This document shows, in pieces, positions 2,861 through 10,462 of a DNA stretch of 58,083 bases. This DNA is from Methanobacteriota archaeon (lineage in GTDB: Archaea; Thermoplasmatota; Poseidoniia; MGIII; CG-Epi1). The DNA lies in the NCBI GenBank assembly GCA_014240255.1, contig JAAZXG010000004.1:1-58083 (forward strand), in the 5' to 3' direction. Numbering within the stretch: position 1 is the first letter of the stretch; every line of letters starts with the position of its first letter. The position numbers and the translations under genes are program-made. The notes beneath the pieces were generated by a model that searched no databases, was not told the origin of the DNA, and worked only from the letters and a program-made list of their open reading frames with translations.

Positions 2861-3226
2861 AATTACTAGAAAAGGAGGCCCTTAATTATTTTTTCTATTA
2901 TACTTATCGATAATTTTAAAATGTTATAAAAAATGAACATAGATTTCCTCGTTTATTTATTTTTTGATTAGAATATATATGCTAAAATTGGCAAGACAAT
3001 AAGTTCCCAAGGCAAAAAGACAACGGCAAATTTTAGGTATCCTAACATAGTACAAACTATAAAACATAATATATAAAGTTAACGGTAAAAGGATTATATT
3101 ATTTTTTTAGTTAATAGAGGATATATTATCAAATGTTCTACTATAGCTAAAAAACCTAAAAAGGTGGGACACAAAATTAACTTGTTTTGAGCATAAATTC
3201 ATAACATAGTAGGTTCAAGGGGTATT

Positions 3227-4168
3227 GTGAGTAGTGGTCATTGCCTTGTTGTTGGAGCAGGTGTCAGTGGTTTATCTTCAGCTATTCGTCTTTTGGAAAA
3301 TGGTTGGCAGGTGACAATATGGTCCTCTGATTTTTCACCAAATACTACTTCTGATATTGCTGCAGCATTATGGTATCCTTTTTTATCAGCTCCAGTTGAA
3401 AAAACAAATATCTGGGGTTCTGAAACATATGATGTACTCAAGGTGCTTTCACGTTTTCCACAGACGGGAGTTTCTATGACACAAACTTATGAATATTTTA
3501 GAGAGGAACAATCAGACCCTGTTTGGAAAGAATCTGTAGATGGTTTCAAAAGGTTAAATGAGGGTTTACCTGAAAAGTATGTCGAATGTTTTTCTTTCAT
3601 TACACCCGTTATTGAAATGCCGATTTATCTTCAATGGCTTATGCGGCGTTATGAAGAACTTGGTGGAAATAAGAGGATAAAGAAGGTTGATAGTTTTTCA
3701 AATATAAGTGATGAGTATAGTTTGATTGTTAATTGTACTGGTCTTGAATCTAGAGCTTTGGTGAATGATGATGAGGTGTATCCAGTGAGGGGGCAAATAA
3801 TACGCGTTAAAACAAATATTAAAGAAATGCATTTAGATCAACAAATTTCGACTTTAGCTTACATAGTACCTAGGAGCAGTGACATGATTCTTGGGGGTGT
3901 AGCTCAAAGTAATGATTGGAGTTTAGATAGCAGAATAGAAGATAGAGATTATATTCTTGAAAAATGTACTAAGCTAATACCAGAGTTAAAGAATGCTGAG
4001 ATAATAGAAGACATGGTAGGATTACGTCCTGGAAGGAGCGAAGTTAGGCTTGAAAAAGAAATATTACTTGGAAGACCTATGATACATAATTATGGTCATG
4101 GAGGTTCAGGAGTTACACTTTCTTGGGGCTGTGCAGATGATGTAGTGGAGTTAGCAAATGAATCATAG
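3227..4168 (+). CDS. D-amino-acid oxidase (FAD-dependent, eukaryote-type DAAO family)
   Basis: Rossmann motif 'VVGAGVSGLSSA'. 'IAAALWYPF', 'IVNCTGL', 'VRGQIIRVK', 'GLRPGR' and the signature 'HNYGHGGSGVTLSWGCA' align along the whole length with human DAAO as I remember it. GTG start. Confidence 0.85.
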   Translation: MSSGHCLVVGAGVSGLSSAIRLLENGWQVTIWSSDFSPNTTSDIAAALWYPFLSAPVEKTNIWGSETYDVLKVLSRFPQTGVSMTQTYEYFREEQSDPVWKESVDGFKRLNEGLPEKYVECFSFITPVIEMPIYLQWLMRRYEELGGNKRIKKVDSFSNISDEYSLIVNCTGLESRALVNDDEVYPVRGQIIRVKTNIKEMHLDQQISTLAYIVPRSSDMILGGVAQSNDWSLDSRIEDRDYILEKCTKLIPELKNAEIIEDMVGLRPGRSEVRLEKEILLGRPMIHNYGHGGSGVTLSWGCADDVVELANES

Positions 4169-5075
4169 TTTTGGAACTCATGATTATTTAGAAGATCCAC
4201 GAAATTCCGAAATTTCAATATATATTAATGGTAAATATTATCCAAGACAGGATGCTTCAATATCTGTTTTTGATAGTGGTTTTTTACTTGGAGATGGTGT
4301 TTGGGAAGGCATTAGATTGCACAATGGTAAATTTGCCTTTTTAGATAAACATCTTGAAAGATTATTCTGGGGAGCTTCACAGATTGATATGGATATTGAG
4401 AAAAATTTGGATGAAATTAAAGATATACTGTATGATACTGTAAAATATAATAAAATGAAAGATGGAGTTCATGTTAGATTAATAATTTCTAGAGGGATAA
4501 AATCAACTCCTTATCAGGATCCTAAATTCACAATATCAGGACCTACAATTGTAGTAATTCCGGAATACAAACAACCAAATCCTGAAACTATAGAACATGG
4601 AATTAAGCTTGTTTCAGTAGATGTTATTCGGGGTTCTCCAGATATGCAAGACCATAGAGTTAACAGTTTGAGTAAATTTAACTGTATCCAAGCTTGTATT
4701 GATGCTAAAAGGAAAGGTGGTGATGAGGGTATAATGTTAGATCCACATGGATACGTTTCAACATGTAATTCTACTCATTTTTTTATCGTTAAAGATGGAG
4801 CTGTCTGGACTTCTACTGGTGAATATTGTTTGGGAGGAGTTACGAGGAAAAATATTATTGGTATTTGTAATGATAATTCCATTCCACTTTACGAGAAAAA
4901 TTTCACATTATCTGAAGTTTATGATGCCGATGAGGCTTTTGTAACTGGAACATTTGCAGGTGTTTTGCCTGTTTATGAGATTGATGATCATGAATTAAAT
5001 GTGTTAGGTTCGAATTCAGTAGTTAAGCTAATCCAATCATACTATAATGATTTGGTATCAAAGGTATGTCTCTAA
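4158..5075 (+). CDS. Class IV (fold type IV) aminotransferase, D-amino-acid / branched-chain type
   Basis: 'SVFDSGFLLGDGVWEGIRLHNGKFAFLDKHLERL' and 'DEAFVTGT' are typical of Aminotran_4. The start overlaps the DAAO stop by 11 nt. Confidence 0.8.
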   Translation: MNHSFGTHDYLEDPRNSEISIYINGKYYPRQDASISVFDSGFLLGDGVWEGIRLHNGKFAFLDKHLERLFWGASQIDMDIEKNLDEIKDILYDTVKYNKMKDGVHVRLIISRGIKSTPYQDPKFTISGPTIVVIPEYKQPNPETIEHGIKLVSVDVIRGSPDMQDHRVNSLSKFNCIQACIDAKRKGGDEGIMLDPHGYVSTCNSTHFFIVKDGAVWTSTGEYCLGGVTRKNIIGICNDNSIPLYEKNFTLSEVYDADEAFVTGTFAGVLPVYEIDDHELNVLGSNSVVKLIQSYYNDLVSKVCL

Positions 5076-5797
5076 TGATTCGTGTTGCGATGTGGTCTGG
5101 ACCTCGCAATATCTCGACTGCAATGATGAGATCATGGGAAAATAGGTCCGATACTTTTGTAATTGATGAACCCTTTTATGCTCACTATTTGAGCCGAAAT
5201 AATATAGAACATCCTGGTCGCGATGAAGTTCTATCAAATGGTGAAATTGATTCCGCTAAAGTTTCACATGGATTAGTTAACGATATTAGTGATTCACATA
5301 AAATATATTATCAAAAACATATGACGCATCATCTTTTAGACAGTGTGAATCGTGATTGGATTGAAAAAGTAATTAATTGTTTTTTGATAAGAAATCCTAA
5401 AGATATGATTATCTCATATAGTAAAATTCATTCAGAGATAACAAGTGATCTTTTAGGATTAGAACAGCAAAAAGAAATATTTGATTATGTTAGACAATTG
5501 ACGGGAAAGACACCACCTATAATTGATTCAAAAGATGTTCTAATAAATCCGGAGTATATTCTCAGTAAGTTTTGTGAGATTATTGGAGTAAATTTTTCTA
5601 ATGAAATGTTGAATTGGCCTAAAGGTACACGAGATACAGATGGTGTTTGGGGGAAATATTGGTATGATGGCGTAATAAATTCCACAGGTTTTAATCAATA
5701 TGTTTCTAAGAATCAAGAAGTTCCAGATAAATACAAAGCTATCTATGAGGATTCTTTGAAACTTTATGAAGACCTCCATTATTTAAGAATAAGATAA
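5066..5797 (+). CDS. Sulfotransferase-like P-loop-fold protein (family assignment tentative)
   Basis: 'MWSGPRNISTAMMRSW...DEPFYAHYL' resembles a marine-microbe family that I recall being annotated as sulfotransferase family protein. It overlaps the upstream stop by 10 nt. Confidence 0.45.
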   Translation: MSLMIRVAMWSGPRNISTAMMRSWENRSDTFVIDEPFYAHYLSRNNIEHPGRDEVLSNGEIDSAKVSHGLVNDISDSHKIYYQKHMTHHLLDSVNRDWIEKVINCFLIRNPKDMIISYSKIHSEITSDLLGLEQQKEIFDYVRQLTGKTPPIIDSKDVLINPEYILSKFCEIIGVNFSNEMLNWPKGTRDTDGVWGKYWYDGVINSTGFNQYVSKNQEVPDKYKAIYEDSLKLYEDLHYLRIR

Positions 5798-5799
5798 TT

Positions 5800-6789
5800 A
5801 TGAGTAAAATAACTTTTAAACCTCTTTATTTTTTAAGTTTGGTTATTCCTTTTTCAGCAATATTTGGGAATTATATGGGTGATTTCTATGTAGGGACCTC
5901 GCTCTTCTTTGGTTTGGTTATTTTCCCACTTCTTGATTTATTATGGGGTAAGGGATTAGATGAGAATTCAGAGGGTGCAAGCCCAATTTTCTTTGATTTT
6001 ATTTTGTATTGCCATGTATTCTTACAATTCATCTCTTTAGGTACTTTTTTTTATTTTGTCATATCAGATCCAGGAATATATTTATTGATTTTAGCAACAT
6101 TGTCTACTGGTTTGAGTACTGGCATTTCTGGAATAGTAGTGGCTCATGAGTTAATTCATCGTAAAGGTATTCCAAAATATAGTGGATATTTGCTTCTTTG
6201 GACTGCAACATATATGCATTTTGAAAGTGAACATGTACAGGGTCATCACAAATATGTAGGTACCGATTTAGATCCAGCTTCAGCTAGAGCCAATGAAGGG
6301 TTGCAATACTTCTTTTTACGGACAGTACCACAGCAATTTATTTCTTCATGGAAGATTGCATCAAAGCGTAGTAATTCTTTATTTTTTAATCAGGCTTCAC
6401 TATTTCTTTTAATTGAGATTTCTACCCTAATAGGATTATATCTATTTCTTGGTGATCGGCTTCTATATGCTTTTCTTGGTCAATGTACGGTAGCAATATA
6501 TTTATTGGAATATGTAAATTATATTAGACATTGGGGACTACGAAGAGAGGCTAAAGATAGAATAACTCCGCAGACAAGTTGGCAGTCAAATGCACGTCTT
6601 AGTCGTTACGTGTTGGTAGAATTAACTAGACATGCAGATCATCATCTGTTCGCAAATAGGCCATATCAATCACTTAGATCCTATGATGATGCACCAAATT
6701 TACCTACTGGTTATTTTGGTTGTTTTTATTTAGCCTTATTTCCACCTATTTGGAAGAGAGTAATGTCTAATTATTTACCTGCTAAATAG
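5800..6789 (+). CDS. alkB: AlkB-like integral-membrane di-iron hydroxylase (alkane 1-monooxygenase / fatty-acid desaturase superfamily)
   Basis: All four AlkB motifs are present in order: 'HELIHR', 'EHVQGHH', 'NYIRHWGL', 'RHADHH...RPYQSLR'. There are multiple N-terminal TM helices. Confidence 0.7.
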   Translation: MSKITFKPLYFLSLVIPFSAIFGNYMGDFYVGTSLFFGLVIFPLLDLLWGKGLDENSEGASPIFFDFILYCHVFLQFISLGTFFYFVISDPGIYLLILATLSTGLSTGISGIVVAHELIHRKGIPKYSGYLLLWTATYMHFESEHVQGHHKYVGTDLDPASARANEGLQYFFLRTVPQQFISSWKIASKRSNSLFFNQASLFLLIEISTLIGLYLFLGDRLLYAFLGQCTVAIYLLEYVNYIRHWGLRREAKDRITPQTSWQSNARLSRYVLVELTRHADHHLFANRPYQSLRSYDDAPNLPTGYFGCFYLALFPPIWKRVMSNYLPAK

Positions 6790-6818
6790 TTAATTATATC
6801 GGCCACTAATGATATGAT

Positions 6819-8156
6819 ATGGGAAAGTCAGTAACTGATGTAAATATTAGAAAATACCGTAAGGATTTCAATTCTAGTTTAACAGCTAAAGTATCAATGA
6901 ATGCTGCAACTCGCACAGATGTTAGGAAGGTAGCAATGAACTGGGAAGCTTTTAGGGATATAGATCATACTTTCTCGGATAAAGTTTCAGGTGAAATGAA
7001 GGCCACGAGTCAAATGCGTAGTGGGCGATGCTGGGGTTTTGCAGGACTAAATTTATTGAGGATTTATTTAGGTCGTAAATATAAGTTAAAGAATTTTGAA
7101 TTTTCACAAAACTATTTTATGTTTTTTGATAAACTTGAAAAATCTAATTATTTTTTAGAAAATATTATTGAGACTGCAGATAAAGAAGCTGGTGAAAGAT
7201 TGGTAATGCATCTTCTTGATAGCCCTATACAGGACGGAGGACAGTGGGATATGTTCGTTAATCTTTTGATGAAGTATGGGACAGTTCCAAAGAAAGCTAT
7301 GGCTGAGAGTTATCACAGTAGCCATTCAGCTCAAATGAATAAATTGATAACAAGAAAATTAAGAGAATTTGCAATGGAATTACGTAAAGCCCATGGAAAA
7401 GGAACTACAGCGGCAGCCTTACGGAAAATGAAGGATAAGCAGATGTCTACAATTTATCAAATGTTATGCATAACTTTGGGTACACCTCCTGAAAAATTTG
7501 ATTGGTCTATCCGTAATAAGAAGGATAAATTTCAACGATTTACAGATTTAACACCTAATACATTTTACAAGGAACATGTCGGCATTAATTTAGATGATTT
7601 TGTCTGCTTGATTAATGACCCACGTAGTTTTGCAGAATATAATAAAACATATACTGTAGAATATTTGGGAAATGTATCTGGCGGTAATATTATTAGATAT
7701 TTAAATTTACAAACAGAAGAGTTAAAGAAATATACAATTAAATCAATTAAAGCTGATGATCCCGTATGGTTTGGTTGTGATGTTGGTAAGTTCTTTACTA
7801 GAGAATATGGGGTAATGGATACAAATTTATTCGAATTTGATAAATTCTTTGATACGAGTTTTAATATGAATAAGGCTGAGAGATTAGATTATGGTGATAG
7901 TGTGATGACTCATGCTATGCTTTTCACAGGCGTAGATCTTAAAAATAAAATGCCTGTAAAATGGCGTGTTGAGAATAGTTGGGGTGCAGACCATGGTGAA
8001 AAAGGATTTGATATAATGACTGATCCATGGTTTGATCAATTTATGTATGAAGTTGTTGTGCATAAAAAACATTTACCAAAGAAAATAATATCTCAATATA
8101 ATGCTGAGCCTATAGGACTTCCTCCGTGGGATCCAATGGGTTCTTTGGCAAGATAG
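6819..8156 (+). CDS. pepC: Aminopeptidase C / bleomycin hydrolase (peptidase family C1B)
   Basis: Active-site 'QMRSGRCWGFAGLN', later 'MTHAMLFTGV' (His) and 'WRVENSWG'. Length 445 aa. Confidence 0.85.
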   Translation: MGKSVTDVNIRKYRKDFNSSLTAKVSMNAATRTDVRKVAMNWEAFRDIDHTFSDKVSGEMKATSQMRSGRCWGFAGLNLLRIYLGRKYKLKNFEFSQNYFMFFDKLEKSNYFLENIIETADKEAGERLVMHLLDSPIQDGGQWDMFVNLLMKYGTVPKKAMAESYHSSHSAQMNKLITRKLREFAMELRKAHGKGTTAAALRKMKDKQMSTIYQMLCITLGTPPEKFDWSIRNKKDKFQRFTDLTPNTFYKEHVGINLDDFVCLINDPRSFAEYNKTYTVEYLGNVSGGNIIRYLNLQTEELKKYTIKSIKADDPVWFGCDVGKFFTREYGVMDTNLFEFDKFFDTSFNMNKAERLDYGDSVMTHAMLFTGVDLKNKMPVKWRVENSWGADHGEKGFDIMTDPWFDQFMYEVVVHKKHLPKKIISQYNAEPIGLPPWDPMGSLAR

Positions 8157-8192
8157 CTTTAGTTTTTAAAATCCTTGTAAAACTACAGATAT

Positions 8193-8200
8193 CTTTATAG
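8193..8200 (+). promoter_or_regulatory. Candidate TATA box for gdhA
   Basis: 'ctttatag' is centred ~31 nt upstream of the ATG at 8227, with no obvious SD between them. Confidence 0.35.
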
Positions 8201-8220
8201 ACTAAGTTCTATCAAACTAG

Positions 8221-10462
<2,242 letters not shown>

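Follow-up and report, generated by a model that had tools for sequence, protein, structure and literature searches.

A lysine-less fold-type IV protein and a putative PAPS-type sulfotransferase are paired within a four-gene array of a Marine Group III archaeon

Do four dissimilar enzymes whose genes overlap or nearly touch also work on one substrate? This question is raised by a stretch of 58,083 nucleotides (referred to as the window here; positions 1 to 58,083 of contig JAAZXG010000004.1, GenBank assembly GCA_014240255.1) from a Marine Group III (MGIII) genome of the archaeal class Poseidoniia, which is 1.2 Mb in size and 70% complete (G000). On the plus strand, the window encodes a D-amino-acid oxidase (DAO), a protein with the fold of class IV aminotransferases (AT4), a sulfotransferase (ST5), and an AlkB-type membrane hydroxylase (AlkB). 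An original prediction, made from the nucleotide sequence without database searches, had described these genes as an operon and proposed that it serves either to scavenge D-amino acids or to modify a single substrate such as an amino- or sulfo-lipid. We consider it likely that the array is a composite, in which one lineage-specific transcription unit would join three separable functions rather than the steps of one pathway. Going by gene neighborhoods and gene fusions, AT4 and ST5 are the conserved unit of the array, from bacteria to plants.

The gene for DAO (positions 3227 to 4168; 313 amino acids; PF01266, E value of 1.4e-36) begins with a GTG codon, and its TAG stop at 4166 to 4168 lies inside the gene for AT4 (4158 to 5075; 305 amino acids; PF01063, E value of 2.1e-39), whose ATG at 4158 creates an overlap of 11 nt. 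AT4 ends with a TAA at 5073 to 5075 and overlaps by 10 nt with ST5 (5066 to 5797; 243 amino acids from the ATG at 5066; PF19798 or Sulfotransfer_5, E value of 4.8e-50), and a gap of only 2 nt separates the TAA of ST5 at 5795 to 5797 from the ATG of AlkB, an AlkB-type membrane di-iron hydroxylase (5800 to 6789; 329 amino acids; PF00487, E value of 2.8e-25). All four open reading frames and their junctions are exactly as originally predicted, and the family names hold at the Pfam level as well; profiles reassigned neither the third nor the fourth gene. The Atlas record and the majority of relatives begin ST5 at what is residue 4 here (ATG at 5075), a start that would give a protein of 240 amino acids and a TAATG junction with an overlap of 1 nt instead of 10 nt; the predicted translational coupling of AT4 and ST5 holds with either start. 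The array continues on the same strand with pepC (after a gap of 29 nt), gdhA (after 70 nt), and the gene of an EamA transporter (overlap of 4 nt). We regard it as probable that the four genes are cotranscribed as one lineage-specific unit, and their cotranslation is likewise supported as probable. Nevertheless, the coding density of the window is 96%, and 18 of its 28 co-directional neighbor pairs overlap or lie at most 5 nt apart, so that a run of three tight junctions would be expected by chance in about 1 of 4 cases. Tight junctions are thus ordinary in this window and by themselves a weak sign of a shared pathway.

To see how far the gene order extends, we distinguished three MGIII genera, namely, g1 (the genus of this genome), g14 (the second genus, including G042), and g13 (the third genus, including G045 and G046), as well as two sister families of the class, which we read as MGIIa and MGIIb because one of them contains Ca. 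Thalassarchaeum. The order DAO-AT4-ST5-AlkB is found only in g1, amid about 12 kb of collinear sequence that comprises upstream membrane and zinc-ribbon genes, the four genes themselves, pepC, gdhA, EamA, and two further genes. Given that this whole neighborhood is collinear, the four-gene order is plain genus-level synteny. The same gene array is present in the uncultured marine group III euryarchaeote AH-321-L02, with protein identities of 63 to 87%. In the second genus, G042 keeps AT4-ST5-AlkB together, and DAO, pepC, and gdhA are absent from its locus. In the third, AlkB of the window type is present in G045, where ST5 is missing, and in G046, where it and ST5 lie on separate contigs. Every locus of Marine Group II (MGII) that we examined has only AT4 and ST5 adjacent to each other, with DAO elsewhere; in the closed genome G069, for example, 121 kb separate it from the pair. 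DAO is also unlinked to the pair in the other MGIII genera and adjoins it only in g1. MGIIb genomes carry the pair behind purC, with polar-amino-acid ABC transporter genes and gdhA about 5 kb away.

Beyond the class, a species scan with one genome per species detected ST5 in at least 592 species. We read the neighborhoods of the best 80 ST5 loci, 79 of which are from outside this MGIII genus. About 68 of these 79 loci, from at least seven phyla or groups (Verrucomicrobiota, Planctomycetota, Gemmatimonadota, Chloroflexota, Pseudomonadota, Marinimicrobia, and MGII), have AT4 and ST5 as direct neighbors on one strand. Culturable organisms that carry the pair include Rhodanobacter lindaniclasticus DSM 17932 (L082) and Tautonia sp. 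JC769 (L066). Neither a DAO nor an AlkB homolog lies within 8 kb of the pair in any of the 79, and a clustering of the open reading frames from 81 loci revealed no recurrent neighbor of the pair beyond lineage synteny. What stays together after the flanking synteny is lost is either AT4-ST5 (MGII and bacteria) or AT4-ST5-AlkB (g14), never the full four. The idea of four enzymes in one pathway is therefore not supported by the comparison with relatives that had been proposed for it, the order being conserved within a single MGIII genus.

AT4 belongs to the fold-type IV sequence family, and its score is under the cutoff for every NCBIfam equivalog. HMMER alignments place IKSLNYLN of the archaeal branched-chain aminotransferase (BCAT) opposite VNSLSKFN of AT4, so that the Schiff-base Lys is replaced by Asn, and vsEGsgdNiF opposite vsTCnsTHfF, so that the Glu at N1 of pyridoxal 5′-phosphate (PLP) is replaced by Thr. 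Among 70 ST5-linked fold-IV homologs, which are of an Asn or a His type, there is no invariant Lys near the catalytic position. The best matches of AT4 in the PDB are 7z79 and 9j32, both entitled “Aminotransferase, class 4” (E value of 4e-89, residues 8 to 285). The protein in 7z79 resembles AT4 in having Asn in place of the lysine and a motif of the STCNST type, and it differs from AT4 in being of bacterial origin; 9j32 is distinguished from 7z79 by a Lys at exactly this Asn. Literature searches for a paper on these two structures and for BCAL proteins returned nothing usable. An independent preprint of 2026 describes a lysine-less fold-type IV “cluster 8” with Asn (80.8%) or His (13.1%) at the catalytic position, whose long members carry PF19798 and which is without the functional signatures of the characterized class IV groups (bioRxiv 10.64898/2026.09.05.748609). 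Its Asn and His classes match both types found in our analysis. It is a software paper, and the split gene pair, archaeal members, and a function are not part of it (10.64898/2026.09.05.748609). Databases label such proteins as branched-chain or D-amino-acid aminotransferases, which for AT4 probably misstates the mechanism. Besides AT4, the same genome has another class IV gene, on contig C48, which has kept both Lys and Glu and presumably encodes the housekeeping canonical BCAT.

The two types follow the order of the genes. Where AT4 comes first, Asn occupies the lysine position of the partner of ST5, the Glu is lost, and the identity to the window protein amounts to 52 to 58%; where ST5 comes first, the partner is only 34 to 41% identical, has His at this position, and has kept the Glu. 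This assignment holds for every ST5-linked fold-IV protein. Among 29 longer ST5 homologs, 26 contain both PF01063 and PF19798. Fusions in the order ST5-then-AT4 are robust and include one eukaryotic protein; AT4-first fusions were discounted as possible merged gene calls, since they are singletons and often shorter than the sum of both parts. A survey of plant BCATs lists a protein with a D-AAT_like as well as a Sulfotransfer_5 domain from Zygophyllum. Such BCAT-like fusions from plants, including tomato BCAT7, share with our pair the two domains and a fold-IV part without the catalytic lysine. In these fusions, ST5 is in front, the lysine position is occupied by His, and the PLP-N1 Glu is retained, in contrast to the separate but overlapping genes described here, in which AT4 comes first, Asn has replaced Lys, and Thr has replaced Glu.

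A tree of the Asn-type proteins from a quick search groups all Poseidoniia with two Marinimicrobia in one supported clade, whose sister is a largely proteobacterial clade. This placement fits an acquisition of the pair from, or its exchange with, marine bacteria. ST5 is consistently the fastest evolving of DAO, AT4, and ST5. One locus is mosaic in this respect (L132, G044:C16, positions 125 to 2692), with AT4 98% identical to the window protein, ST5 66%, and DAO 87%, suggesting a recombination breakpoint at the AT4/ST5 junction.

For ST5, we aligned 51 homologs, MGIII copies included, and found the 5′-phosphosulfate-binding motif WSGPRNIST, the motif QKHMTHH, and the 3′-phosphate-binding motif IRNPKDMIIS to be invariant. 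The individual invariant residues are W10, S11, G12, P13, R14, N15, S17, and T18 in the first motif and R109, P111, and S117 in the last one (RNPKDxxxS), with motif definitions that we take from general knowledge of sulfotransferases. The AlphaFold2 model of ST5 has a pLDDT of 94.1 and a pTM of 0.91. When it was used as a Foldseek query, the tyrosylprotein sulfotransferases TPST1/2 and the sulfotransferase (ST) domains of CurM and OLS came out on top with a probability of 1.0, and TPST, CurM ST, OLS ST, Stf0, and the SULTs all reached at least 0.97. In its motifs and in this model, ST5 thus keeps the sulfotransferase fold and the sites for binding 3′-phosphoadenosine 5′-phosphosulfate (PAPS). 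TPST1/2, CurM ST (4gbm), and OLS ST (4gox) share the PAPS fold and motifs with ST5 at TM scores of 0.5 to 0.59, with weak sequence matches and an identity of only 10 to 14%. They act on peptide tyrosine (TPST) or on β-hydroxyacyl groups bound to acyl carrier protein (CurM and OLS ST), they lack a fold-IV partner, unlike ST5, and they do not have the Trp- and Tyr-rich C-terminal region that is distinctive to ST5.

The first gene of the array encodes, judging by its motifs, a genuine FAD-dependent D-amino-acid oxidase (DAAO) of the eukaryotic type. DAO matches the structures of human and pig DAAO and of D-aspartate oxidase (e.g., 2du8 and 6rkf) collinearly over the full length with E values of about 1e-54; for 6kbp, the match covers residues 7 to 309 (E value of 1.2e-54). 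The GxGxxG motif for FAD aligns as VVGAGVSGL, GLRPGR aligns to GFRPVR (the Arg motif for the substrate carboxylate), aYIVP aligns to pYIIP (the equivalent of active-site Tyr228), and the C-terminal HNYGHGGSG aligns to HNYGHGGYG; we assume for these motifs the residue roles generally known from human DAAO. The protein differs from mammalian DAAO in being archaeal and shorter (313 amino acids) and in having Ser at the position of human Tyr224. In a sample of 201 class genomes with a completeness of at least 80%, 50 of 75 MGIIb genomes and 15 of 22 genomes of the MGIII family encode DAO, compared with none of 100 from MGIIa. A literature search returned no paper tying D-amino-acid oxidase to MGII or MGIII.

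The fourth gene product contains the AlkB histidine boxes HELIH, EHVQGHH, and HADHH as well as NYIRHWGL, which is of the NYxEHYGL type. It matches alkane 1-monooxygenase 8sbb over its full length (E value of 1.5e-41), and its relatives carry the JGI name alkane 1-monooxygenase. We rejected a carotenoid ketolase or fatty acid desaturase as the identity of this gene because its motifs are specific to AlkB and because it matches an AlkB structure. The structures 8sbb and 8f6t share all histidine boxes and the NYxxHxGL motif with our AlkB and are longer (399 to 471 versus 329 amino acids). We found no rubredoxin (PF00301) in 24 genomes of the genus or in 14 MGII genomes; it was found only in the other MGIII family. 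AlkB-like genes are widespread across the class and are unlinked to the pair in MGII. The suggestion that the enzymes would be new for this archaeal group does not hold for AlkB, because 365 alkB genes, a few of them transcribed, have been published from 361 metagenome-assembled genomes (MAGs) of MGII and MGIII (PMC13488336). The published view of the substrate in Poseidoniia is cyanobacterial alkanes.

Taken together, these features are best accommodated by the composite reading. Transcription of the four genes would probably start at a single promoter within the spacer of 366 bp that precedes DAO. DAO would convert free D-amino acids into 2-oxo acids, NH4+, and H2O2, a reaction that fits the genes for peptide and amino acid catabolism (pepC and gdhA) that follow the array. 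The AT4-ST5 module would have been acquired from bacteria and kept as a pair, and its two proteins may form a physical complex. Within it, ST5 would be the catalyst, a PAPS-type sulfotransferase that transfers sulfate to a small acceptor, and AT4, with its lysine and Glu lost, would not carry out canonical transamination; it may instead bind and present an amino-acid-like or oxo-acid-like acceptor or process the sulfated product. AlkB would oxidize an alkyl chain, for which its electron donor would have to be something other than rubredoxin.

Several observations weigh against this reading. The AlphaFold2 model of a natural ST5-AT4 fusion has both domains folded (pTM of 0.55) and no confident interface between them. 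Furthermore, BCAT activity has been reported for the fused tomato protein BCAT7 (Kochevenko 2012, as cited in 10.64898/2026.09.05.748609, through which we know it), and a loss of transamination in the lysine-less type is thus not proven. This activity would suit the D-amino-acid scavenging that had been proposed for the operon, in which DAAO and AT4, the latter as a true aminotransferase, would yield L-amino acids or 2-oxo acids that feed GdhA. The oxidase does appear genuine, pepC and gdhA come next on the same strand, and in MGIIb gdhA and the polar-amino-acid transporter genes are near the pair. Still, we hold such a module to be quite unlikely: the catalytic Lys and the PLP-N1 Glu of AT4 have become Asn and Thr, the characterized class IV signatures are missing from “cluster 8” (10.64898/2026.09.05.748609), a canonical BCAT is presumably available from contig C48, outside one genus DAO is nowhere linked to the pair, and the invariant sulfotransferase partner would be left without a role.

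A second group of opposing observations concerns AlkB. In G042, ST5 and AlkB overlap by 4 nt in a locus that shares no other flanking synteny with g1. Moreover, the slot between ST5 and pepC in the genus always holds an AlkB gene, despite the fact that a tree splits these genes into two deeply separated lineages in different species of the genus (L021 to L039, L122, and L133). The window type occurs in six other genomes of the genus at 67 to 86% identity, and it forms one supported clade with database proteins and the G042 copy, which is its nearest relative. The second type, found in 11 genomes of the genus, is 38 to 41% identical to the window protein and is nested inside the MGII clade. Two lineages in the same slot imply either an in-place replacement or a reciprocal loss from a tandem pair, and the constant presence of an AlkB gene is a hint of selection for co-location. 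It is conceivable that in MGIII the pair has come to work alongside AlkB, joined in this genus by DAAO, in a lineage-specific pathway on one substrate, where AlkB might hydroxylate an alkyl or lipid chain and ST5 sulfate the hydroxyl thus formed. The order of a hydroxylase followed by a sulfotransferase would be chemically logical, and AT4-ST5-AlkB is predicted to be translationally coupled in both g1 and g14 with otherwise different flanks. We nevertheless judge this pathway to be improbable, given that no AlkB is near the pair in the 79 loci outside the genus (all MGII loci included), that g13 has the window-type AlkB apart from ST5 or without it, that the coupling is lost with the second AlkB lineage, where the gap between ST5 and AlkB is 85 to 420 nt, and that tight junctions are normal in this window. 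The only point in favor of the single lipid substrate put forward originally is that ST5 and AlkB adjoin each other in two MGIII genera; in the third, AlkB is unlinked to ST5 or occurs without it. Fragmentary AlkB and ST5 genes, some of which contain internal stop codons, are present in g1 and g13 (G041:C55:35950-36126, G046:C18:18411-18674, and G215:C7:11258-11392), which suggests that both are still being lost from parts of the MGIII family.

The third point against the composite reading is the supply of PAPS. ST5 has a patchy distribution in the class sample (15 of 22 MGIII-family, 25 of 75 MGIIb, and 5 of 100 MGIIa genomes). In MGII, it is confined to genera in which the kinase for adenosine 5′-phosphosulfate (APS) is common: 26 of 30 ST5-positive genomes encode APS kinase, compared with 23 of 145 ST5-negative ones, a co-occurrence that is no statistical test because these genomes are kin and not independent. 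Of about 30 genomes in the genus of the window, only G023 and G009 yielded a canonical APS kinase of full length. APS kinase and ATP sulfurylase (Sat) were not found in our genome or in most genus genomes with a completeness of 85 to 92%, and no genome of the genus yielded a Sat-type ATP sulfurylase. With APS kinase scarce and Sat not found, the PAPS donor is not secured in MGIII. The ST5 of MGIII might accordingly be independent of PAPS, e.g., by using another 3′-phosphoadenosine ligand, by working in reverse from a sulfated marine metabolite, or by serving as a noncatalytic binding partner. We give this alternative little credence, since all PAPS-contact motifs are invariant, MGIII copies included, since ST5 and APS kinase co-occur strongly at the genus level in MGII, and since APS kinase does occur at full length in two genomes of the genus.

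Of the APS kinases of the genus, only one is well resolved. It is encoded in G009, within a variable glycan island (L134, G009:C24, positions 3419 to 10113) that also encodes GT2, AsnB, sulfatase-like, pyruvate-kinase-barrel, cytidylyltransferase-like, and FkbM methyltransferase proteins. Islands of this kind may often be missed by MAGs, and the absence of APS kinase from the genus is thus not established. The pyruvate-kinase-barrel and the small cytidylyltransferase-like proteins flank the APS kinase, and together they might be an unusual set for sulfate activation. In 111 loci, a tblastn search with an APS kinase from MGIII gave no hit within 8 kb of the pair. Separately, a truncated APS-kinase-like P-loop protein of 141 to 151 amino acids, which covers only profile positions 4 to 109, is encoded at positions 5559 to 5984 of L135 (G013:C3) and in relatives, and it occurs in several MGIII genomes with or without ST5.

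The single promoter assumed by the composite reading would lie in an intergenic region of 366 bp (2861 to 3226) between DAO and the divergent gene of a 103-amino-acid membrane protein. In a comparison of 14 genus genomes, this spacer is 64 to 91% identical to the window sequence, with long invariant runs, a striking conservation next to the DAO proteins, which are only 66 to 87% identical. One invariant block, at about 3069 to 3084, reads ATATATAAAGTTAACG, and its minus-strand reading, TTTATATAT, fits a consensus-like archaeal TATA box, making it a candidate promoter element; another block, at 3159 to 3167, reads AAAAGGTGG. RNAalifold predicts a plus-strand stem of 8 bp (3134 to 3141 with 3164 to 3171) that needs G-U pairs and contains one covarying pair (U-G in 7, A-U in 4, and C-G in 1 sequence), and it gave nothing convincing on the minus strand. 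Scans of the spacer returned no Rfam match, no tRNA, and no open reading frame of at least 40 amino acids. We infer that the spacer is probably a shared control region of the divergent genes, with one or more promoters and a structured leader of the operon; the conserved sequence may act as a regulatory leader or a small RNA. Further downstream, the spacers before gdhA (8157 to 8226) and pepC (6790 to 6818) contain the TATA-like runs CTTTATAG and TTAATTATAT, at the spacing that leaderless transcripts of archaea would require. This suggests that pepC and gdhA may have their own promoters and that the coupled unit may end at AlkB.

How the two proteins of the conserved pair could act together is suggested by CurM ST, in which sulfation activates a leaving group. 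By analogy, AT4 and ST5 could be a two-component enzyme in which an amino-acid-like substrate sits in the PLP-fold pocket and is activated by sulfation, and which in MGIII would be connected to the oxidation of D-amino acids upstream and to AlkB downstream. This proposal is speculative and, in our estimate, improbable as a whole. If true, it would offer a natural way to approach the substrate of this module, which is conserved from bacteria to plants.

AlkB in these archaea was known from the literature, and the lysine-less cluster and its fusion with PF19798 from the preprint and the PDB. Specific to this locus are the archaeal branch of the pair, its position between DAAO and AlkB genes, the seeming absence of a PAPS pathway, and a conserved leader. 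With at least 592 prokaryotic species and fused forms in land plants, the pair is among the more widespread conserved gene pairs without an assigned function. The MGIII copy adds an archaeal branch that clusters with Marinimicrobia and a lineage in which the usual route to the sulfate donor mostly escapes detection, and its context, with DAAO upstream and AlkB downstream, suggests which acceptors to try first. In addition, the distribution of DAO, which is present in most of the sampled MGIIb and MGIII-family genomes and in none of those from MGIIa, points to D-amino acids as a substrate that separates the niches of these archaea.

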